The position numbers and the translations under genes were made by a program. Shown here piece by piece: positions 450 through 25,439 of a DNA stretch of 64,000 bases (position 1 is the first letter of the stretch; each line of letters begins with the position of its first letter). Source of the stretch: an uncultured Syntrophothermus sp. (lineage in GTDB: Bacteria; Bacillota; Syntrophomonadia; Syntrophomonadales; Syntrophothermaceae); NCBI GenBank assembly GCA_964405385.1, contig CAYONS010000002.1:5019-69018 (forward strand), in the 5' to 3' direction. The notes beneath the pieces were generated by a model, which was not told where the DNA came from, ran no database searches, and saw nothing but the letters and a program-made list of their open reading frames with translations.

Positions 450-2048
450 CTAGTAAGCCATGAACGAAAGGTGCTTCAACCACAGCACGTCGTCCGGCAC
501 CGGGTAATCGCGGCGAAAGTGGGCTCCCCTGCTTTCCCGGCGCCACAGCGCCGCTTGGGTGATGACCTTGGCCGTGATGAGCATGTTGACCACTTCATAG
601 TACATCAAGATGTCGTCTCCCACGGCCAGGCGGCTGTATAGATCTTCGATTATGGCTGCTGCTTTTTTCAGCCCGATTTCATCCCTTATTATACCCACAT
701 GTTCCCACATGGTTTCTTTTACGGCGGCGAGGGCCTTGTCCGGGGTTATGTAATCCCGCCCGCTGTACGGCACCAGCACCCATTCCCGGTCAAAATTCTT
801 TACCACTTCGTCAAAGCTAACCTTGTTCTTCCACAACATATGCTCGGCGCTGTTGACTATACGCTGGCCGAAGACTATGCCCTCCAGAAGGGAGTTGCTC
901 GCCAGGCGGTTCGCGCCGTGAACCCCGGTGCAAGCCACCTCTCCGCAGGAATACAGGCCGAAAACCCCGGTTGCACCGTTGATATCGGTCTTGATCCCTC
1001 CCATCATGTAATGGGCCGCCGGTGATACCGGTATCATCTCCCGGGCCGGGTCAAACCCGCGGGCCAGACAGTTTCTATATATATTGGGGAATCGTTCCGT
1101 AAGGTTGGGGATGGAACGCATGTCCAGATACACGTGATCCGTGCCGCTTGCCGTCATCTCGCTCCATATGGCCCTGGCGACGATATCCCGGGGAGCCAGT
1201 TCCGCCAGTGAGTGATACCGGGTCATAAACCTTTCTCCTTTTTGATTGAAAAGGAGCCCCCCTTCGCCCCTGACGGCTTCAGAAATAAGGAAACGGCGGG
1301 GCTCGTCCGTGGCCAGAACCGTAGGATGGAACTGCACGAACTCCATGTCCGTCAGCTCGCAGCCCGCCCGGAAGGCCGCCCCCAGACCGTCGGCAGTAGC
1401 TATTTCCGGATTGGTCGTGTATTTATAGAGCTGACCGGCGCCCCCTGTGCATATGATAACCGCCCTCGCCAGAAAAACCGCTTTTTCCCGGCGGTTCGCG
1501 TCATAGACGAGAGCCCCTTCGCAGCGGTTCTCTACAGTAAGAATGTCTATCAAGAAGTGGTCTTCCAGAACCGGTATCGATTTTTCCATGCACTTTCCCA
1601 CCAAGGCCTGGCGTATGGCTTCTCCGGTGGCATCGGCAGCATGTAAAATGCGGGCTTTGCTGTGAGCCGCCTCTCGAGTCAGGCGAACCGCGCCGTCTAC
1701 GGTGTCAAAACGCGCTCCCATGGCCATGAGCTCCCGCACCCGCTCCGGCCCTTCGGTCACCAGTACGTTTACCGCCGCCGGGTCGCACAAACCGGCTCCG
1801 GCTTCAAGGGTATCCTCCAGATGCAAAAAAGGGGAATCTTCCTCGTGTACCGCCGCTGCGATTCCCCCTTGAGCCAGACCGGTGTTCGAATCTTCTATCT
1901 TCTTTTTGGTCAGGACCGTAACCTGCCCCAGGTCACACGCCTTCAGGGCCGTGAAAAGCCCGGCTATCCCGCTGCCGATAACCAAGAAATCAGTGGTGTA
2001 TACCGGTATGTCCGGAGTTACGTCGGAAATGTACCTGGTGGTAATCAT
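450..2048 (-). CDS. nadB: L-aspartate oxidase
   Basis: 532-aa ORF with an FAD fold (DFLVIGSGIAGL) and fumarate-reductase-type flavoprotein motifs (RGEGG, HYMMGG). It sits in a nadA-nadB-nadC arrangement. Confidence 0.93.
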   Translation of the reverse strand: MITTRYISDVTPDIPVYTTDFLVIGSGIAGLFTALKACDLGQVTVLTKKKIEDSNTGLAQGGIAAAVHEEDSPFLHLEDTLEAGAGLCDPAAVNVLVTEGPERVRELMAMGARFDTVDGAVRLTREAAHSKARILHAADATGEAIRQALVGKCMEKSIPVLEDHFLIDILTVENRCEGALVYDANRREKAVFLARAVIICTGGAGQLYKYTTNPEIATADGLGAAFRAGCELTDMEFVQFHPTVLATDEPRRFLISEAVRGEGGLLFNQKGERFMTRYHSLAELAPRDIVARAIWSEMTASGTDHVYLDMRSIPNLTERFPNIYRNCLARGFDPAREMIPVSPAAHYMMGGIKTDINGATGVFGLYSCGEVACTGVHGANRLASNSLLEGIVFGQRIVNSAEHMLWKNKVSFDEVVKNFDREWVLVPYSGRDYITPDKALAAVKETMWEHVGIIRDEIGLKKAAAIIEDLYSRLAVGDDILMYYEVVNMLITAKVITQAALWRRESRGAHFRRDYPVPDDVLWLKHLSFMAY

Positions 2049-2091
2049 GAAAATACATCTCTTTCCCCGAAATTGTCTGAATCTCGTCGGT

Positions 2092-3015
2092 TCAGCGCAA
2101 CTGGATCATCCGCTCAAGCGCCCGGTATGCCTTTTTGCGTATATCCTCGGGAACTTCGATCCGGGGTTCCAGCATACCCAAGGCCTGCACCAACTTATCA
2201 ACAGTAGTCAACTTCATGTCAGGGCACACGAACTCCGAGCGAACCAGGTAAAATTCGCGGTCAGGGTACCGCTTCCTCAACTGGTACATAAGCCCTTCTT
2301 CCGTGCCTATTATAAACTCGCGGGCGGCAAGCCGGCCGGCCATCTCCAGTATGCCGGCGGTGGAAAGCGCGTAATCGGAATGAGCGACCACCTCCGGCGG
2401 GCATTCGGGATGAACCAGCACCACCGCCTCAGGGTGCTGCCGCTTGGCCTCCATCAATTCTTCCAGTGTAACCCGATGGTGCACCGGGCAGTACCCCTCC
2501 CACAAGATGATGTCCCGCTTAGTCTGCCTGGCTACGTAGTCCCCGAGATTCTTATCGGGAACGAACAGAATAGGGAGGTCCGGGGACAGCGAGTTGACTA
2601 CTTTAACAGCATTGGAAGAAGTGCAGCATATGTCGCTTTCCGCCTTCACCTCGGCCGAGGAGTTGACGTAACACACCACCTGCACCCCGGGTATCTCCTG
2701 CCTTTTCTTCCTCAGGGCTTCTGCCGTGGCCATGTCGACCATGGGGCAGCCCGCCTGCGGTTCCGGCAGAATGACCGTGCGATTCGGGTTGAGGATTTTC
2801 GCGCTTTCTGCCATGAACCTTACGCCGCAGAATACGATCACATCGGCTGTAGTCTGGGCTGCCTGCACCGCCAGCTGCAGAGAATCGCCCACGTAATCGG
2901 CGAGTTCCTGTATCTCCGGCCTCTGGTAGAAATGAGCCAGGATGACCGCATTCAGCTCCTCTTTTCTTTTTCTAATGTATTCTGCCTGTTCCCGATATTC
3001 TTCTAGGACTTTCAC
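2092..3015 (-). CDS. nadA: quinolinate synthase
   Basis: 307-aa ORF with typical NadA length and sequence (ILAHFYQ, VHPECP), adjacent to nadB. Confidence 0.93.
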   Translation of the reverse strand: MKVLEEYREQAEYIRKRKEELNAVILAHFYQRPEIQELADYVGDSLQLAVQAAQTTADVIVFCGVRFMAESAKILNPNRTVILPEPQAGCPMVDMATAEALRKKRQEIPGVQVVCYVNSSAEVKAESDICCTSSNAVKVVNSLSPDLPILFVPDKNLGDYVARQTKRDIILWEGYCPVHHRVTLEELMEAKRQHPEAVVLVHPECPPEVVAHSDYALSTAGILEMAGRLAAREFIIGTEEGLMYQLRKRYPDREFYLVRSEFVCPDMKLTTVDKLVQALGMLEPRIEVPEDIRKKAYRALERMIQLR

Positions 3016-6032: not shown

Positions 6033-6179
6033 CGATATTTAACCTCCTCATGTCCTGTACGGAAACCCGGTCTCGCGGGTTCCCACCTCTCTTACGTCTC
6101 GCTCCCAGATCCGCTTGACTAAGGATACGAGCATCTGACACTGAAGATCAGGGCTATGGCGGGAGATACCGTATTCTTT

Positions 6180-7202
6180 TTACCCGTTCTTAATGTTTCG
6201 TTGACTCATTTTATCACAGGAAAGTTTTTTTATACAACCGGTTTCATGTTTTTTGGCAAGATTTTCCCAGACAGTTTGAATCCGCTTCCCGTCGGGAAGA
6301 ACGGCATCAGGATCAACCTCCAGCAACGGAACCAGTACAAAGGCTCGCTCCTTGAGCCGGGGATGCGGCACTGTGAGTTCGGCGGTACTAATTTCCCGGT
6401 CACCGAACAGCAGAATATCGATATCGATGATCCTAGGCCCCCATTTTTCTCCCCGGACGCGCCCCATTCTCTCTTCAATGGCAAGAATCTGTCTCAAGAG
6501 CTCGCGGGGATCGAGGTCGGTTGCAACCGCCAACACTTGATTGACAAATTGATCCTGATCCCGCTTGCCCCACGGATCGGTCAAGTAAAAGGACGACTCC
6601 TTAACCACGGTGATGCGCCCGTCCTCCTCAAGAAGCCTTTTGGCCTCCTTCAGGTTCCCGCACTTGTCGCCCATATTCGATCCCAACCCGAGGTAAACCA
6701 ACTCCTTCCCATGAAGCCGCGTATCACTGGAGGCGTCGGAAACGCAAGGGGACGGTTCTTCTGTGTCACATTGCAATTCAACACAGAAAAGCCGTCCCCG
6801 TATGTCACAGGCCTTCATCGTATGCTCGCTTTTCTCAGTATCTCTTTGAACTTCCCGGTAAATAGTCACGCCTACGTATTCCACCGGCCCCGGCATGGGA
6901 GCCCGCGGCTTCCTGACGGTGATTTCCACTGCCCTTACCCGGTGTTCCTGCATAATGCGCCGGGCCAGGTTCTCGGCCAGGGTCTCAACCAGATTCACCT
7001 GGGTACCCTCGACCACGCGCCGTGCGGTTTCGTAGACAGCCGCGTAATCCACTGTATCTTCTATGCGGTCAGTGCCCGCCGCCGGCCCGGTGTCCACGTA
7101 CAGGACCGCGTCCACCAGGAACGGCTGTTTGCTCCTGCGTTCTTCTGGAAGAACCCCGTGGCTCCCCCAGAATTCCATGCCCGCAAGGATGAGCTTGTCC
7201 AT
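6180..7202 (-). CDS. folBK: bifunctional dihydroneopterin aldolase / 2-amino-4-hydroxy-6-hydroxymethyldihydropteridine diphosphokinase (FolB-FolK fusion)
   Basis: 340 aa. Residues 1-118 are FolB-like (GMEFWGSHGVLPEE). Residues ~168-340 are FolK-like (VYLGLGSNMGD, IIDIDILLF). A ~50-aa Cys-rich linker joins them. Confidence 0.85.
   Translation of the reverse strand: MDKLILAGMEFWGSHGVLPEERRSKQPFLVDAVLYVDTGPAAGTDRIEDTVDYAAVYETARRVVEGTQVNLVETLAENLARRIMQEHRVRAVEITVRKPRAPMPGPVEYVGVTIYREVQRDTEKSEHTMKACDIRGRLFCVELQCDTEEPSPCVSDASSDTRLHGKELVYLGLGSNMGDKCGNLKEAKRLLEEDGRITVVKESSFYLTDPWGKRDQDQFVNQVLAVATDLDPRELLRQILAIEERMGRVRGEKWGPRIIDIDILLFGDREISTAELTVPHPRLKERAFVLVPLLEVDPDAVLPDGKRIQTVWENLAKKHETGCIKKLSCDKMSQRNIKNG
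6743..6804. repeat. degenerate copy of the 17514-type palindrome, embedded in frame in the folB-folK linker
   Basis: GGGGACGGTTCTTCTGTGT (6748-6766) and ACACAGAAAAGCCGTCCCC (6781-6799) are 17/19 complementary. The left arm matches 17520-17543 at 23/24 positions. Confidence 0.8.
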
Positions 7203-7234
7203 CCGATCCTCCTGCGTCTAATAATACCTATGGC

Positions 7235-8437
7235 CTATTTTACGGCGTCGGCGATGGCTGCGGCCCGTTTTGTCTCCTTTACATCGTGCACTCTCAGGAT
7301 GTCGGCCCCGTTGAGGATGCCGATGACTGCCGCCGCCAGACTGCCTTCAAGCCTTTCCTCGACCGGCAGGTTCAGGGCCATGCCGATAAAAGACTTACGG
7401 GAAGCCCCCAAAAGCAGGGGATAGCCCAGGCTCTTAAACTCGCGCAGCCGTTTCAGTATGACGAAATTTTCCTCCCCGATCTTCCCGAACCCTATGCCGG
7501 GGTCGAGGATTATACCCTCCCGCGCAATCCCAGCCTCTCGGGCTTTTGCCAGGGATGCCTGTAAATCCTCCATCATCTCGTCAATGAGGTTATGGTAGCC
7601 TTCGGCAGGACGGTTGGGCATCCGGTTGTGCATGATGACGACAGGAGCTCGGAACCGGGCAACCACTCGGGCCATTTCTTCGTCAAACATCAGGCCCCCG
7701 ACGTCGTTTACGATGTCGGCCCCGGCTTCGAGGCACAGCCGTGCCACATCCGCACGGTATGTATCCACAGACACAGGAATATCAAGCTCCCCGGCTAACC
7801 GCTCGAGGACCGGAAGTACTCGGGAAATCTCTTCTTCCGCCGGTACCGGGACATGTCCCGGCCGGGTGGACATGCCTCCGATGTCGATTATGTCGGCTCC
7901 TTCTTCCTTCATGGCGAAAGCCCTCTCAACGGCCGCTTCTGGCTCGAGATACCTGCCCCCGTCGGAAAACGAATCGGGAGTAACATTGAGTATGCCCATG
8001 ATCAACGTCCGTCCTCCCAGAACCAATTGCCGGTTACGGGGAAGCTCTATAACCCTCGGTCCCGCCTCATCAAGGAAAGACAGCATTTCGCTCAACTCAT
8101 CCGCTACTTTCTTCAGGCCGAAGGGCTGGGCGCGCAGTTTCTTTATCAGCTGCTGGTAATGCCGCAAGGTGCCTAAAAGCAAGACATCGGTGGTTCCCTG
8201 TCCCGTCACTGTGCCCCTCTTGACCGCGGCTTCTCCGCCTTTGGACAGCATCTCCTGCTTGATGATATTAGCCGCGGGACAAGGAATATCAAGAAGTTTG
8301 ACCGCTCGGAAAACGGCCTTCGGTATCATCCAGCGGACCCCTGCTTCGTCAGCTCCTACTTCTCTCAGGAACTGTTCGGCCTCCCGCCGGTCTCGAATTA
8401 TGACCACGTGCCCCTTCCTCATTCTCGATGTCCCCAC
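7235..8437 (-). CDS. folP: dihydropteroate synthase with ~140-aa N-terminal extension
   Basis: 400 aa. The pterin-binding domain starts at IMGILNVTPDSFSDGG (residue ~146). DIGGMSTRPG and GASRKSF motifs are present. Confidence 0.9.
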   Translation of the reverse strand: MGTSRMRKGHVVIIRDRREAEQFLREVGADEAGVRWMIPKAVFRAVKLLDIPCPAANIIKQEMLSKGGEAAVKRGTVTGQGTTDVLLLGTLRHYQQLIKKLRAQPFGLKKVADELSEMLSFLDEAGPRVIELPRNRQLVLGGRTLIMGILNVTPDSFSDGGRYLEPEAAVERAFAMKEEGADIIDIGGMSTRPGHVPVPAEEEISRVLPVLERLAGELDIPVSVDTYRADVARLCLEAGADIVNDVGGLMFDEEMARVVARFRAPVVIMHNRMPNRPAEGYHNLIDEMMEDLQASLAKAREAGIAREGIILDPGIGFGKIGEENFVILKRLREFKSLGYPLLLGASRKSFIGMALNLPVEERLEGSLAAAVIGILNGADILRVHDVKETKRAAAIADAVK

Positions 8438-14826: not shown

Positions 14827-17367
14827 CTAGGGTCCTTTCACGCCATCGATGCGGGCTACGAGTACGGTCATGTCGTCGGCGGGCTGTCCCCGAGCGCGGT
14901 CCAAGGCCCGGTTGATTATCAAGTCGGATATCCTCTGCGGGTCGATTTCGTCTGTTTCTGCAAGCAGGCGGGAAAGCCATACTTCCCGGTCATCTCGTCC
15001 CCGCTGAGAATCCAGGACCCCATCTGTTACCATGACAATAATGTCTCCGGCCCGCAGGGCCTTGCGTTCGCAGACGGTTTCGAGGTTATTGAGAATGCCT
15101 ATAGGAGGCGAGCTTGAAGTCACGACCCCGACCCGGGTGCCCCTCTTAATAAATGTAGGGGCACTTCCAATTTTCACGAAGTCTGTTTCCGCCGAATACA
15201 GGTCGACCAAACACAGATCGACGGTGGCGAACGTCTCACTCGGCGAGCGCAGGAGAAGCACGGTATTTATGGTCTTTAGGGCCACTTCTTTTGCAAACCC
15301 GCCGGTTAGCAATTCCTCAAGGAGGTTGACCACTGCCCTGCTCTCCATAAACGCCCTCTTCCCCACGCCCATGCCGTCACTGAGAACCAGAAGTTCCTTG
15401 CCTTCCTTCAGTGTGGCCACGGTGAAACTGTCGCCCGACACCCTCTCCTTTGCCAGTTGGGCCGCCCCGGTAACAACTCGATAGCCGTGGGCCCTCGCCA
15501 GAGTGAACTCACACCTGCCTTTCCCTGCTTGCCGAGGGCATCGTTTGTCGCAGACTTCGTAGGTTTCACCCATGAACAAAGAAACGGTCGGGGCCAGCGT
15601 ATCACAGGTCGCCCCATCCGTACAGGAAGCGGCGACTATTCGGAAATATACCTGGTTCTCAGCAGTTACCACCGGAATCGCGTCGTGCACCTTGACCCCT
15701 TGCTTTCTGCATTCACGAAGCACTCGGTTGCGCAACTCCTGGTCCACACGGGTTCTAAGATCGATCTCGCCAGCCAGGTTCTTAATGATGTCGGAAACAC
15801 CGCGCAGCTGGTTGGACACGATTTCTTTAGACTCGAGGAGTTTGCCCTGCCAGTACTCGGTCACCCTAAGATGTTCAAAGACTTGGTTTATCCTGGCCGC
15901 CAGTTCCCGACATCTGAGGCAGCGCTTACGCATACCGGGCGGGAAATCTTCGCTGTCCACCTTGCCTGCTGATTCAGCCAGGCTGAAGAGCTCGAATAGA
16001 TTCTTGTAGGTTCGGTAAAAGTCTTGATCCCAGCAAGTGGTATACAGAGCACAGCTCTTGCAGAAACCCTGCGAAATCTCGTCGAACAGGATGTTCAGGT
16101 AGTTTCGGTCAGCTTTGGAGGCTGTACGGGAATCTCCCTCGGCCAAGGCCAGTGAAAGCTCTTCAAAAATGCGACCCAGGCGGGTTACCCGCTCTTTAGC
16201 CATCTCCTGGATGTATTCGTCCAGGAGAGCCGCTTCTTCCTTTTCCGCCACAGCAAGTCGTTTGGCAACTGTTCTTACCGGAACCTTTTCCTTGAGAGAC
16301 TCCGGCAATAAAAGGAAGATAACCGAAGCTATCCCGGTTTCCCACACTCCCATCAAGACTTGATCCGTATTCATGACAAAAACCGAGAGCAAAAGGCTGC
16401 CCAACATGAACCCTACTATGACACCCAGGCGGGTAAAAGCTTGAAAGAGCCCGGCTACCAACCCCGATACTGCGTATATCCCGAGGATCTCCGGCTTGAA
16501 CTGGGCAGACAGCGCGGGCACGGCTCCCCCCAGAACCCCGGCCATGGTGCCCCCGCCACTGCCCCACAGAAAGGCCGCCACCAATATCCCCAGCCTCGTC
16601 AGTATGCCGGTGAGGCTCAGTTTGAAGAAAGCTATGTCGGTCAAACCCAGAATAACTCCAACTGCCAAGATGCCAAAAGAAGCCATTTCTTCGAAATCGA
16701 ACTCCGCCGCCGCCTTATTCTCTGCGATACCCTCCTCGGCCAAGGCGAAAATGAAGGTCAGCACCCCGGCAATCAGGGCTTCGAAAATGACTACCATCTC
16801 CTGGTAAAAGGAAGGCTGCCCCAGGCAGAAAAACAGAGTCTTAACCACCAAGATAACCGAAGCTGTGACCACCGGGAGGGTAACGGTTTTCTTGCCAAGA
16901 GGAAACGGGACATAGTGCATTGCAGTAACGAGCAGCACAGCAGTTAGGAGGTTGCTCCATAACAAGTACCCCCCAGGCCCTGTCAAAAGGCCCACAAACG
17001 AAAATAAGATTATCCCCAGGTTACGTCTAGGATCCTTGCGGTAGAAAGCAGCGATAAAGGCAAAGCCAAAAGGCAGTATCTCCCCGAGCACAAAAGCCCG
17101 GCTAAGAATAAGAACAATCGCCCATGTCGCTATGTTCTCTCGCGAAAACGTATCAATCCATGCCCGCTTGTTTCCAATAAACAGCAGGACAGGGATTAAT
17201 TTCTCCCTTACCTTTGTGCTTACGTCTGAGCCCCGCGGCAGAACCGGCTGGCCCGCCCGGGGTCTAAAGTCCCGGCGCTTTTTCTTCCTACGGAGCTTTC
17301 CCGCCTCCTCCCCCAGACGCTGGTACGGGTACACCTCCAGCCTGTCCACTGCTCTCCCTCCTGCCAT
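14827..17367 (-). CDS. spoIIE: stage II sporulation protein E (PP2C phosphatase with multi-pass membrane domain)
   Basis: 846 aa with a long polytopic N-terminal half and a C-terminal PP2C-like domain (LVLSDGMGVG, MVTDGV). Confidence 0.92.
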   Translation of the reverse strand: MAGGRAVDRLEVYPYQRLGEEAGKLRRKKKRRDFRPRAGQPVLPRGSDVSTKVREKLIPVLLFIGNKRAWIDTFSRENIATWAIVLILSRAFVLGEILPFGFAFIAAFYRKDPRRNLGIILFSFVGLLTGPGGYLLWSNLLTAVLLVTAMHYVPFPLGKKTVTLPVVTASVILVVKTLFFCLGQPSFYQEMVVIFEALIAGVLTFIFALAEEGIAENKAAAEFDFEEMASFGILAVGVILGLTDIAFFKLSLTGILTRLGILVAAFLWGSGGGTMAGVLGGAVPALSAQFKPEILGIYAVSGLVAGLFQAFTRLGVIVGFMLGSLLLSVFVMNTDQVLMGVWETGIASVIFLLLPESLKEKVPVRTVAKRLAVAEKEEAALLDEYIQEMAKERVTRLGRIFEELSLALAEGDSRTASKADRNYLNILFDEISQGFCKSCALYTTCWDQDFYRTYKNLFELFSLAESAGKVDSEDFPPGMRKRCLRCRELAARINQVFEHLRVTEYWQGKLLESKEIVSNQLRGVSDIIKNLAGEIDLRTRVDQELRNRVLRECRKQGVKVHDAIPVVTAENQVYFRIVAASCTDGATCDTLAPTVSLFMGETYEVCDKRCPRQAGKGRCEFTLARAHGYRVVTGAAQLAKERVSGDSFTVATLKEGKELLVLSDGMGVGKRAFMESRAVVNLLEELLTGGFAKEVALKTINTVLLLRSPSETFATVDLCLVDLYSAETDFVKIGSAPTFIKRGTRVGVVTSSSPPIGILNNLETVCERKALRAGDIIVMVTDGVLDSQRGRDDREVWLSRLLAETDEIDPQRISDLIINRALDRARGQPADDMTVLVARIDGVKGP

Positions 17368-17513
17368 GCTTTATCAGGTACATTATACCGTTAAAGTCTG
17401 GCATTATTTGTCAATACCGGGCTTGCCACGTGATTTTTCATCAGTCACCGATAGACACCGTTCTTTACTAGACGCTTATTTACGCAGTTCTTTCACAGCG
17501 GCACAAGGGGACG

Positions 17514-17579
17514 CGCACAAGGGGACGGTTCCTCTGTGTCAACCCAAAGGTTGACACAGAGGAACCGTCCCCTTGTGCG
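17514..17579. repeat. perfect 31-bp-arm palindrome (4-nt loop), REP/foldback-like
   Basis: CGCACAAGGGGACGGTTCCTCTGTGTCAACC-CAAA-GGTTGACACAGAGGAACCGTCCCCTTGTGCG. It is preceded by a tandem partial copy, CACAAGGGGACG, at 17502-17513. Confidence 0.9.
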
Positions 17580-17666: not shown

Positions 17667-19391
17667 TTATAAGAACTTCTTGTTCTTCGGATGGTAGTGC
17701 GTATGCAGGAGCTCATGGGACTTGTGGCCCAGGGGCTCGTGCAGGAACTCTTCGTAGAGTATCTTGACTTCGGGGTTCTCGTGGGACTTGCGTATCGGCA
17801 GCGACTCGTCTTCCTGGTATATGGCTGCTATGCGCTCGGCCCGCTTGGCGTTGGACTTGGTAAGAGGCTGTCCGCCGCCACCTATGCAGCCGCCGGGGCA
17901 CGCCATTATTTCGATGAAGTGGTAGGGCGACTGTCCGGCCCGTACTTGGTCCATGAGCTTCCTGGCGTTGGCCAGCCCGTGGGCAATGGCGACTTTTACC
18001 TTGGTCCCATCCAGGTCTATTTCAGCTTCTTTAATTCCATCCATGCCGCGAGCGAAGGTGAAATTCACGTTCTCTAAGGTCTTGCCCGTCACCACTTCGT
18101 AGACGGTACGGAGAGCTGCTTCCATGACCCCGCCGGTAGCTCCGAATATGACGCCGGCACCGGTATATGCGCCCATCCAGGAATCGAACTTGCTCGGAGC
18201 CAGCTTCCTGAAATCGATGCCTGCCATCCGGAACAAGCGGCCGACTTCCCTGGTGGTCAGGACCAAGTCAACGTCGCGGTATCCGCTGTCCTGCATCTCC
18301 GGACGCGCTGCCTCGTACTTCTTGGCGGTGCAGGGCATGATGGATACCGAGTAGATCTTGGACGGATCTATTCCCATCTTCTGCGCCCAGTAAGTCTTGA
18401 CCAGAGCCCCGAACATCTGCTGCGGCGATTTGCAGGTGGACAGATGATCCAGAAGATCCGGATAGTAGGTCTCGCAGAAGTTTATCCAGCCCGGGCTGCA
18501 GGAAGTGAACATCGGCAGCTTGCCGCCTTCTTTGAGGCGCTTCAAAAGCTCGTTTCCTTCTTCCATGATGGTGAGGTCGGCGGTGAAGTTGGTGTGCAGC
18601 ACGTAGTCGAAGCCGATCTGCCTCAACCCGGCTACAAAGACTTCCATGGGCATTTCTCCGGTAGCCATGCCCACCTCTTCGCCGATCGCAGTTCTCACCG
18701 CCGGCGCAATCTGGGTCACAACCACCTTGTCCGGATCAGCTACTGCAGCCAGAAACTCGTCGATCTGTTCTTTCTCGCTGATGGCACCCACCGGACAGGC
18801 GTGGATACACTGACCGCACATGACGCAGGGGCTTTCCGCCAGGTCTTTGCCCAGTGAGGGCACAACCATGGCGTGGTTGCCGCGGTTCTCGATACCCAAC
18901 GCGTTGACCGTCTGGGTCACGCTACATGCCGAGATACAGCGGCGGCAGAGTATACACTTGTCAGGATCCCGTACGATGGACGGGGTAGAAGTATCCATGG
19001 GCAACCCCCGCACCAGCTGCTCGAACGGGTTCTCCCTTATGGCGTATTCTTCCGCTATAGCCTGTAGTTCGCAGTTCTGGTTCCGAATGCAGCCCAGACA
19101 GTCCTGCGGGTGATGGGCCAGGATAAGCTCAAGTATGGTCTTTCTGGCCTCGATTACCTTAGGACTGTGGGTCTTTACTACCATTCCTTCATAGACCGGC
19201 TGAGAGCATGCAGCTTGCAAGAGTCTTTGTCCTTCCACTTCGCACACGCATATCCGGCAGTTGGCTTTGATTTCCTGGTCCGGATGATAGCATAGGGTGG
19301 GGATGCGAACACCGGCTACTTGCGCTGCCTGCAATATGGTTGAGCCGTCAGGAACGGATACTTGGATACCGTCTATGGTTACGTTAGCCAT
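17667..19391 (-). CDS. hydA: [FeFe]-hydrogenase catalytic subunit (NuoG-like N-terminus + H-cluster domain)
   Basis: 574 aa with N-terminal 2Fe-2S and 4Fe-4S Cys motifs. H-cluster motifs are FTSCSPGW (variant L1), MPCTAKKYE (L2) and EIMACPGGCIGGGGQP (L3). Confidence 0.93.
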   Translation of the reverse strand: MANVTIDGIQVSVPDGSTILQAAQVAGVRIPTLCYHPDQEIKANCRICVCEVEGQRLLQAACSQPVYEGMVVKTHSPKVIEARKTILELILAHHPQDCLGCIRNQNCELQAIAEEYAIRENPFEQLVRGLPMDTSTPSIVRDPDKCILCRRCISACSVTQTVNALGIENRGNHAMVVPSLGKDLAESPCVMCGQCIHACPVGAISEKEQIDEFLAAVADPDKVVVTQIAPAVRTAIGEEVGMATGEMPMEVFVAGLRQIGFDYVLHTNFTADLTIMEEGNELLKRLKEGGKLPMFTSCSPGWINFCETYYPDLLDHLSTCKSPQQMFGALVKTYWAQKMGIDPSKIYSVSIMPCTAKKYEAARPEMQDSGYRDVDLVLTTREVGRLFRMAGIDFRKLAPSKFDSWMGAYTGAGVIFGATGGVMEAALRTVYEVVTGKTLENVNFTFARGMDGIKEAEIDLDGTKVKVAIAHGLANARKLMDQVRAGQSPYHFIEIMACPGGCIGGGGQPLTKSNAKRAERIAAIYQEDESLPIRKSHENPEVKILYEEFLHEPLGHKSHELLHTHYHPKNKKFL

Positions 19392-22730: not shown

Positions 22731-25439
22731 CTAGATCTTATCCAGCCTGGCCGCGCATACCTTGTATTCGGGTATCTTAGCCACCGGATCGAGCGAATCC
22801 GCGTTCGTAAGCCAGTTGACCGCCGCTTCGGCAAAGTGGAAGGTCATGAACACTACGTTTGCCTCCAAGATATCAGTTATCTTGGCTTTGACTTCCACAC
22901 TCCCTCTGCGGGTTGACAGCCTCACCTTTTCCCCGTTCTCAATGCCCAGCCTGGCGGCCAAGGCCGGGTTGATCTCCACTTCAGCCTCAGGCACATGCTG
23001 ATGAAGAGCCGAAGATCGACGGGTCATTGTTCCGGTATGATAATGGAATAGGTTGCGGCCTGTAGTCAAAATCAACGGGTATTCTTCGTCTGTAACTTCC
23101 GCGGGTTCTTTGTATTCAATTGCAGAAAAAGCGCCTTTGCCCCGAGTGAACTTCCCGTCCTTGTGCAGGAAAGGAGTCCCAGGGTGATCCTCTGATGGGC
23201 AGGGCCATTGCAGGCCTTTACCTTCCAGGCGGGCATACGTCATCCCGGCGTAGGAAGGAGTAAGGCTGCGAATCTCTTCAAATATCTCTTCTGCTGAGCT
23301 GTAGTTCATCGGATACCCCATCTTCCCAGCCAGTTCACAGATTATCTGCCAGTCTACCTTGGCTTGCCCCGGGGGCTCTACGGCCTTGCGCACCCGTTGA
23401 ACCCTTCTCTCGGTGTTGGTGAATGTTCCTTCTTTTTCGGCAAAACAGGCTCCCGGCAGCACAACGTCGGCGTATCTCGCGGTGTCGGTCAGGAAGATAT
23501 CCTGCACCACCAGGAATTCCAGTTTTTCTAAAGCCTCTTTCACATGGTGCAGGTCCGGGTCGCTCATCATGGGATTCTCGCCGATGACAACCAGAGCCTT
23601 TATCTCTCCTGCGTAGGCTTTGTTGATGGTTTCCGTCAGGGTCAAACCAGGTTTTCCTGAGAGCGAAACACTCCACGCCTTTTCAAACTTCGCCCGCGCT
23701 TCGTCGTTCGCCACCTGCTGATAGCCGGTGAACACATTGGGTAGCCCGCCCATATCACAGGCTCCCTGTACATTGTTCTGGCCTCTCAGGGGGTCGACTC
23801 CAGTGCCCGGACGACCGATGTTGCCTGTGAGCATGGCCAAGTTGCACACCGATTTGACGTTATCCGTACCAGTGCTGTGTTGTGTCAGGCCCATGGCATA
23901 ACAAATGACCGCAGCCTCGGCTTCGGCATAGATACGGGCCGCCCGACGTATATCGGCAGCCGGTACTCCGGTAATGGTTTCTACGTATTCCGGTGTATAC
24001 TTCGCCACTACCTGGGCCATAGCTTCGTATCCTTCAGTATTGGCAGCTATAAACTCTTGATCGGCCAGCCCTTCGCTGATGATGACATTCATTATCCCGT
24101 TAAGGAGGGCCACGTCGGTTCCAGGTCTGTGTTGCAGGTAGACGTCCGCTATTTCGGCTAAGTCGATACGGCGCGGGTCCGCCACTATCAACTTAGCTCC
24201 GTTCTCCAGGACGTTCTTTTTAATCTTCATTCCTATGACCGGGTGATTTTCCGTAGTGTTGGATCCTATAACAAAAATGGCCTTGGCGTCCTCCTCCAGT
24301 TCATTAATGGAGTTGGTCATTGCTCCGCTTCCGAATGCTGTCCCCAGACCGGCGACAGTAACGGAGTGTCAGAGACGCGCACAGTGGTCCACGTTGTTGG
24401 TTCCAAGGACGGCCCGCGCAAATTTCTGGGCCAGGTAGTTTTCTTCATTGGTTATCCGGGCCGAGGTGAAAACCGCTATGGACTCGGGCCCGCTTGTTTG
24501 CTTGATCTCCTGTAAACGCGAGGCTACGAGTTCCAGGGCCTCATCCCAGGACGCTTCCCGGAATTGACCGTTTTCATTAATTAGCGGAGTGGTCAAGCGC
24601 TCAGGTGAATGGATGAAATCCCACCCGAACCGGCCTTTGACACACAGGGCTCCTTTATTGACCGGGCTCCAGTTAAGAGAGCGGTTAGAGGTTACCCCTA
24701 CTACCCGGTTGTCTTTTACGTTCAGTTCCAAAGTGCATCCGGTGCCGCAGTAGGTACAGGTGGTCAGTACCTTTTCTACCTGGTAGGGCCTGCCCTTTCC
24801 TGCACTTACCTTGCTGGTCAAAGCGCCTACGGGACACACCATAATGCACTGACCGCAGAAAACGCAGGGAGAATCAGCCAGGTTGCCGTCAAAAGCGGTC
24901 GCGATCTTGGCGTTGTGCCCGCGTTCAGCCACATTAATGGCCCGAGCCATAGTTATCCCTTCACAAGCCCGGACACAGCGAGTACACATGATGCATTTGT
25001 TGTAGTCTCTTTCAATGAACGGGTTGGGGTCATCGATGGGATACTGGGGCCTTCCCCCATCCCTAAACCTGGAATCGGATACTCCGTATTCGTAGCAATA
25101 ATCCTGCAATTTGCAATCCCCGTTCTTTTCACAGGTCAAGCAGTTGCCCCCGTGACGCGCCAGCAGTAATTCCAGAATCACTCTGCGGGCCTCTACTATA
25201 TCCGGGCTGTGGGTTTCAATCACCATGCCGTTTTCGGCCGGTGCCACGCAGGCCGCCAGAAACAAGGGCCGGCCCTTGGCCTCGACTATACACATCCGGC
25301 ACGAACCGGCCAGCCTAAGATCCGGATCGTAGCAAAGAGTCGGCAGCTCGATGCCGTTTAACCGGCATGCTTCCAGAATGGTACTGCCATCAGGCGCCTG
25401 CACTTCTTTGCCGTTTATAGTCAGTGTTACCATCTTCAT
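22731..25439 (-). CDS. fdhA: formate dehydrogenase catalytic subunit, selenocysteine-containing (Mo/W-bisPGD) with NuoG-like Fe-S N-terminus
   Basis: Two same-frame ORFs (24369..25439 and 22731..24320) join if TGA 24369-24371 is read as Sec: ...[28 protein letters not shown].... This is the classic FDH Sec context. Confidence 0.9.
24338..24358 (-). other. candidate bacterial SECIS hairpin
   Basis: Begins 11 nt 3' of the UGA. CUGUC(G)CC-GGUCUG-GGGACAG forms a 7-bp stem with one bulged G and a GGUCUG loop, resembling the E. coli fdhF SECIS apex. Confidence 0.6.

Follow-up and report, generated by a model that had tools for sequence, protein, structure and literature searches.

A decayed intergenic hairpin repeat as the probable source of part of the linker in a lineage-specific FolB-FolK fusion

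Introduction

Gene fusion is a main route by which multi-domain enzymes arise, yet one seldom gets to see the steps in between. Fusion through loss of a stop codon is a textbook mechanism. In the stretch of DNA analysed here (64 kb, hereafter the window), a single reading frame encodes dihydroneopterin aldolase (FolB) followed by HPPK (FolK), and the segment that joins the two domains includes a translated copy of a palindromic element, of which a further copy lies between genes. How did a palindromic repeat come to form part of a protein linker? A first-pass annotation, made from the sequence alone, proposed that the repeat once sat between separate folB and folK genes and became the linker of the fused enzyme or, alternatively, that the element was inserted into a linker that already existed. 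The results of the current analysis allow us to weigh these and other explanations through the relatives of the gene, the other copies of the element and known repeat systems.

Results

The folB-folK gene starts with an ATG that has an AGGAGG Shine-Dalgarno sequence upstream. As the first-pass annotation described it, the gene is one continuous frame in which FolB comes first, FolK second and a spacer lies between them; FolB followed by HPPK in one reading frame is the arrangement of a bifunctional FolB-FolK enzyme, and the Pfam matches place both domains on either side of the spacer (Table 1). The alignments indicate that the nearly invariant FolB residues E21, Y53, E73 and K98 are kept in the window protein, as are the invariant residues of HPPK, including N176, D260, D262, H280 and R286, and both domains look functional as judged from these residues. 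A second assembly, the Logan assembly of run SRR6318356, is 100% identical to the window over 4,104 nt across the gene, with reads that are possibly common to both assemblies; the uninterrupted frame is therefore not confined to one assembler. Downstream of folB, the sole plausible separate start for a FolK-only product in the window would be the internal Met129.

Table 1. Coordinates of the features of the folB-folK gene and of the palindromic copies in the window.
Feature	Position	Strand	Remarks
folB-folK gene (FolB + linker + FolK; dihydroneopterin aldolase + HPPK)	6180..7202	minus	single 340-aa ORF
FolB domain, residues 1-120	6843..7202	minus	Pfam PF02152, residues 5-114, E = 7e-37
Linker, residues 121-165	6708..6842	minus	without counterpart in 2CG8 or compact fusions
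FolK/HPPK domain, residues 166-340 plus stop, clade-specific C-terminal tail included	6180..6707	minus	Pfam PF01288, residues 170-298, E = 9e-41
In-frame internal ATG (Met129), 5' of the element	6816..6818	minus	weak Shine-Dalgarno context
Decayed inverted pair of hairpin-repeat units	6743..6804	.	arms 6748-6766 / 6781-6799, 14-nt loop; encodes residues 133-154
Intergenic pristine copy of the element	17514..17579	.	perfect 31-nt arms, 4-nt loop
Partial extra unit GCACAAGGGGACG abutting the 17514 palindrome	17501..17513	plus	from sequence

Two further genes of the window deserve mention. FolP (7235-8437, minus strand, 400 aa) carries an N-terminal extension of ~145 residues without Pfam match in front of a Pterin_bind domain at residues 147-384; the FolP of a Syntrophomonadaceae MAG described below (L101) bears a similar extension, which is thus conserved in the group. 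At 22731-25439 (minus strand), the catalytic subunit of a formate dehydrogenase is spread over two same-frame ORFs with one TGA between them. The position of this TGA is the classic selenocysteine site of FdhA, and the enzyme is probably Sec-containing and not the product of a broken gene. The gene adjoins genes for NuoF-like and NuoE-like subunits and for a formate transporter (FNT).

The palindromic character of the in-frame element was confirmed. The reverse complement of its second arm (6781-6799), GGGGACGGCTTTTCTGTGT, differs from the first arm (6748-6766), GGGGACGGTTCTTCTGTGT, at 2 of 19 positions, which gives the 17/19 inverted repeat first reported, and as mRNA the region folds with -33.1 kcal/mol (z = -6.1), a value matched by 0/200 shuffles. 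The near-identity of an arm to the intergenic palindrome also held up: apart from position 6746, the two arms of the copy at 17514-17579 are the sole sites of the 23-mer AAGGGGACGGTTCYTCTGTGTCA (chance expectation in the 64-kb window, 0.00). The peptide encoded by the element is DIRGRLFCVELQCDTEEPSPCV, located where the first-pass annotation had put it, and the echo peptide that it had read from the opposite strand is present as ...RGRFFCVTLQFNTEKPSPYV... in an antisense ORF. This "shadow" ORF (6156..7424, plus strand, 422 aa) covers folB-folK in full along with part of folP, and is presumably non-coding, a by-product of sense-strand codon bias.

The copy at 17514 lies between a hydrogenase gene (17667..19391) and spoIIE (14827..17367), directly after a terminator-like hairpin at 17612-17598, and folds with -73 kcal/mol. 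Compared with such pristine copies, the copy within the ORF is the most decayed that we have seen: it has two arm mismatches and more departures from the family consensus, its loop measures 14 nt as against 3-4 nt, and its folding energy is -33 as against -73 to -95 kcal/mol. Either age or selection against a strong hairpin in a translated region could account for this decay; the hairpin that is left in the mRNA could still impede translation or draw RNases.

The linker differs from the domains that it joins. Its GC3 is 0.49, compared with 0.73 in folB and 0.65 in folK, and this non-coding-like value extends to the parts of the linker outside the element. The three frames of the linker contain 0, 1 and 5 stops, so that it is open in the fusion frame only, and at its composition the chance of one given frame being open is P(open) ~0.09. 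The linker thus resembles non-coding DNA that was recruited recently. AlphaFold gave both domains a pLDDT above 90 and residues 122-162 a pLDDT below 50 and no secondary structure, and the linker is accordingly predicted to be disordered between two confident domains.

The element belongs to a hairpin repeat that is widespread in Clostridia. The exact core 21-mer was found in 36 stretches from many Clostridia lineages, including Pelotomaculum, Syntrophomonas, Alkaliphilus, Paramaledivibacter, Oscillospiraceae, Acutalibacteraceae and Anaerovoracaceae, and a profile of 128 copies showed conservation to be limited to ~25 nt, (gga)ACACAAGGGGACGGTTCCTCTGTGt. Each unit is a hairpin, in which an invariant 11-nt GGGGACGGTTC sits inside a loop of 13-15 nt, closed by a near-invariant CA...TG and by a stem of 5-8 bp that is variable yet complementary (for instance ACACA/TGTGT, GCACA/TGTGC, TGTCA/TGACA, CAATCA/TGATTG and AGACA/TGTCT). 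A stem of at least 5 bp is present in 72/128 units, compared with ~3 when the flanks are shuffled. In a gapless alignment of 45 sequences, picked for stem diversity and a common loop length, the covariation score was 0.414 as against 0.163 in shuffles, and was reached by 0/500 of them; three stem pairs have 11-13 double-sided changes each, and every slid register scored lower. The units occur singly, in direct arrays and in inverted pairs, and neighbours within 150 nt form 24 convergent, 39 direct and 0 divergent pairs, so that the pair architecture is REPIN/MITE-like. The unit contains no stop codon in any of its six frames. Among the ~125 copies examined, the window copy alone is situated well within a genuine two-domain ORF. 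In L025, a 181-aa ORF crosses four tandem units into a weak HTH-like tail; it was not counted as a second fusion, as its HTH_23 match is sub-threshold.

Searches for a known family or a mobile partner of the repeat were negative. Rfam at gathering thresholds gave no match in the window or in the related contigs L001 and L003 described below, and the generic hairpin matches to eukaryotic miRNA models that permissive Rfam scans returned were dropped, as they scored far below threshold (43 vs 100 bits). The element had no match in plasmids, phages or IMG/VR viral contigs. As for a linked transposase or "master" element, no protein family lies beside the copies in more than 3/36 loci, and no transposase was found among the larger ORFs of the 64-kb window. 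In the literature, string searches for the core on both strands retrieved unrelated primer matches only, and nothing specific was found on REP-mediated gene fusion. We have thus found no published description of this Clostridia hairpin repeat family, whose design of conserved loop and covarying stem is unusual. Direct arrays of 3-4 units were observed in Acutalibacteraceae MAGs (L029, 290-1210; L025, 3860-3950), where small genes without annotation and the end of an Rhs/YD-repeat-like ORF adjoin them; the stem subtypes of these arrays differ and include GTCAATCA/TGATTGAC. Two contigs, L008 and L025, have more than 70 identical nt in common on the inner side of the unit.

FolB-FolK fusions were found across many phyla in the protein search, usually as proteins of 270-295 aa. 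The closest matches to the window FolK are HPPK-only proteins, namely P0002 (69%) and P0018 (60%). The contig that encodes P0002 (L001) is collinear with the window, with a nucleotide identity of 76% from folB onward and of 83% in folP. In L001, folB is a separate gene of 118 aa that ends in ...VYREG-TAA, and the spacer of ~200 nt between folB and folK is filled, directly after the TAA, by a composite copy of the same palindrome family that pairs perfectly (-95 kcal/mol). The two L001 genes share one frame, and just a single stop separates them. The gene caller has moved the FolK start of L001 upstream of the element, to an ATG that follows directly on the folB stop and has a good Shine-Dalgarno sequence, GGGAGG; the result is a 241-aa "FolK". 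When the two junctions are aligned, the window is without the folB stop codon that L001 has; it also lacks 28 nt, which in L001 include a G-rich, Shine-Dalgarno-like stretch, and it has GGG at the position of an L001 GTG that is a candidate FolK start five codons before the conserved YLGLGSN.

The genes are separate as well in L003/L007, the contigs of P0018. Here, the folB-folK spacer is a 461-nt insert that is unrelated to the element (L003, 2846-3306; also in L007) and forms a long imperfect hairpin (-173 kcal/mol, z = -3.7), with no Rfam match even at E = 1. In a tblastn survey of ~80 genome loci, most Syntrophomonadaceae are split, with spacers of 60-150 nt, whereas in true fusions (Syntrophothermus, Clostridium, Peptoniphilus and others) the domains are 0-18 nt apart. 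The spacers of the Syntrophomonas group, judged by eye, hold a promoter-like TTGCCC-N17-TATGCTAAT box, a Shine-Dalgarno sequence and the folK start. Since the near relatives are split and the true fusions compact, split genes are likely to be ancestral and the long-linker fusion of the window lineage-specific. Two fused proteins with a Pro-rich 50-aa linker, P0003/P0004 (46% identical), were considered as fused ancestors and dropped, as their gene neighbourhood differs (FTCD and dNK genes). The comparison of folB and folK in relatives that had been put forward as a check therefore came out in favour of the main inference of the first-pass annotation, that a former intergenic repeat became the linker of a fused enzyme: the genes are separate in L001, L003/L007 and most Syntrophomonadaceae, and the spacer of L001 holds the element family. 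One detail of that inference needs correction. The element was said to have lost its in-frame stops; the unit has none to lose, and the items missing from the window are the stop codon of folB and the candidate Shine-Dalgarno sequence and GTG start of folK that L001 has.

Searches of the protein database and of the genome and metagenome contig collections gave no relative closer than L001. With FTHFS as bait, the best genome contig had 63% identity, and with a clade-specific FolK alignment the best match was 58% among metagenome contigs and 60% among genome contigs, the latter in a Syntrophomonadaceae MAG of the L003 lineage (L251). The fused state with this linker is known from one genome and its nearest relative stands at 76% nucleotide identity; the fusion event therefore cannot be bracketed.

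The contig L001 (2.5 kb) holds two composite palindrome copies, one upstream of folB (489-560) and one between folB and folK (1005-1115). The two agree in all of 57 nt, and short partial repeats GAGACACAAG flank both, which suggests recent copying or homogenisation. Since it is pristine and matches the other L001 copy exactly, the spacer copy may stem from a separate, recent insertion, in which case it would not be orthologous to the decayed copy in the window. The folB-folK junction would then be a recurrent landing site, and when the insert of L003 is considered too, palindromic insertions seem to have landed at this junction repeatedly.

The Syntrophomonadaceae MAG STF2_222 (L101, JAQWBP010000007.1) carries a single unit, GTGTCAAGAGAACCGTCCCCTTGACAC, at 2920-3003, inserted at the folP/folB junction and flanked by a direct duplication of ~30 nt of that junction. 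The folP ORF (1751..3001, 416 aa) runs through the unit and thereby gains a 22-residue C-terminal tail, ...AEDKIMADGCQENRPLDTGVES. Read in this way, L101 would be a second, independent case of the repeat being translated in the fol operon.

Discussion

The results of the current analysis make it probable that the FolB-FolK protein of the window is a lineage-specific fusion, formed by read-through of a former folB-folK spacer that held a decayed pair of repeats. We propose that the spacer would have contained a decayed inverted pair of the stop-free Clostridia hairpin repeat. The folB stop codon would then have been lost and, with the genes in phase, ribosomes would have run from folB over the repeat into folK, whose own start signals (a candidate Shine-Dalgarno sequence and the GTG) would also have been lost. 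The outcome would be the present protein, of ~38 kDa, in which the element is carried in a tether of ~45 residues between two intact catalytic domains. The unit cannot end translation in any frame, so an upstream gene that loses its stop reads across the repeat; and with no folB stop left, an in-phase spacer and an apparently lost folK start, ribosomes on folB must continue into folK. We infer that the change went from split to fused genes, that the insertion preceded the fusion, that folK lost its start and that the fusion protein is made and active. Chance would yield an open, in-phase spacer of 47 codons in a few percent of cases, and the fusion could therefore be neutral or transient rather than selected.

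Read-through of a spacer has to be weighed against a fusion that came first and took up the element later, in frame, in an existing inter-domain linker, in the manner of the RPEs. This was the alternative offered by the first-pass annotation. A stop-free unit would be tolerated wherever it landed in frame, the family is still active or homogenised, as the pristine copy at 17514 and the identical copies of L001 indicate, and the junctions of the fol operon have been struck repeatedly and apparently independently (L001, L003 with a different element, and L101). Fusions with a long linker also exist, namely P0003/P0004, but these are not orthologous and have a different gene neighbourhood. The near relatives are all split, the GC3 of the linker is non-coding-like outside the element too, and the copy in the ORF, being the most decayed, is old relative to the others. 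Insertion into an existing linker is accordingly unlikely, though the L001 copy, which is possibly a separate recent insertion, leaves it some weight.

It is also quite unlikely, and slightly more so, that FolK is mainly made alone from Met129, with the element acting as an N-terminal extension of FolK or as an mRNA hairpin that modulates stability or coupling, and with the fusion as a minor by-product. Met129 does lie just upstream of the element, as does the called FolK start of L001 with its GGGAGG sequence, and the element still forms a strong hairpin in the mRNA. However, the Shine-Dalgarno context of Met129 is weak and no stop follows folB, so that any translation of folB would necessarily yield a fusion product. 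That the fusion is an artefact of assembly or sequencing, which would have dropped a stop or frameshift close to the palindrome from genes that are in truth separate, we consider very improbable. The contig is of draft or metagenome type, palindromes can cause local errors and a single organism shows the fused state; against this, the Logan assembly is identical over 4.1 kb, albeit from reads that are possibly shared, arms of 19 nt are trivial for short reads, and an artefact would leave the lack of a credible separate folK start in the window unexplained. Read-through of the former spacer thus remains the explanation that we favour.

A broader reading is more doubtful, and we offer it tentatively: the repeat could be a previously undescribed hairpin family of several Clostridia orders, with a loop that implies a conserved trans-acting factor, and a recurrent source of tails and linkers that promotes the fusion of operon genes. 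An invariant GGGGACGGTTC loop on freely covarying stems would imply recognition by such a factor, and a unit without stops in six frames would let the family supply new protein tails and inter-domain linkers time and again. If this were true, the FolB-FolK linker and the FolP tail of L101 would be two examples of a general, repeat-driven route to fusion.

The locus is of interest since related organisms display both a post-fusion state (the window) and a pre-fusion one (L001), and the case shows a way for a stop-free intergenic repeat to become a protein linker. What is new here is the combination of a repeat for which we found no description, its exaptation into a linker that bridges formerly separate genes, and a pre-fusion relative. 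Gene callers extend ORFs through such repeats, as in the "FolK" of L001 and the FolP tail of L101, and annotation therefore needs care.

The in-frame reading of palindromic repeats is known from the RPEs of Rickettsia and from some MITEs (PMC10969869). The window element resembles the RPEs and intragenic MITEs in being a multi-copy, stop-free palindromic repeat that lies in frame in a housekeeping gene, leaves the gene intact and occupies a site tolerated by the fold (PMC10969869), in this case an inter-domain position predicted to be exposed by its pLDDT below 50. The likeness is one of features. The element is shorter (~60 bp as against ~100-150 bp), the host belongs to a different phylum, copies within ORFs are rare in the hairpin family, and the element lies in what appears to be a former intergenic spacer, where it bridges two genes instead of interrupting one. 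RPEs encode a conserved peptide in a preferred frame, whereas the frame in which the copies are read differs between the window, L001 and L101: the window copy gives RGRLFCV...TEEPSPC, that of L001 would give KGTVPLC...RGTVPLC and that of L101 gives CQENRPL.

With REP, BIME and REPIN sequences the repeat shares short hairpin units that are scattered between genes, often just after terminators (PMC3116915, PMC2817692), and that occur singly, in tandem and as inverted pairs of fixed orientation. REPs have conserved stems and a 5' GTAG-type motif recognised by RAYT, whereas the Clostridia family has an invariant loop, a covarying stem and no GTAG; no RAYT/Y1 transposase was found in the 64-kb window, nor a recurrent protein family beside the copies (36 loci). 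REPINs, moreover, are lineage-specific, whereas the core of the Clostridia repeat is present in several orders. Given that its copies share neither a conserved peptide nor a conserved stem with GTAG, we do not file the hairpin repeat as a member of the RPEs or REPs. Like MITEs, it is small, has terminal inverted repeats and has no coding capacity, with convergent units flanking spacers of 8-125 nt; as to a target-site duplication, the flanks of the L101 unit are duplicated over ~30 nt, none is evident at the window copies, and no parent element was found.

At the level of the protein, the best solved relative is 2CG8, the bifunctional DHNA-HPPK enzyme SulD of Streptococcus pneumoniae, which has the same order of FolB then HPPK and conserves both domains. 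Its residues 1-121 align to residues 1-120 of the window protein and its residues 119-259 to residues 166-307, and the window protein thus carries a clean insertion of ~45 residues exactly at the domain junction. In 2CG8 and the compact fusions the domains join directly, whereas residues 121-165 are extra in the window protein, whose fusion appears to have arisen independently in a clade that otherwise keeps folB and folK separate. In the work on 2CG8, the compact fusion is reportedly built from a DHNA oligomeric core with peripheral HPPK domains, and a flexible tether would be compatible with such an arrangement.
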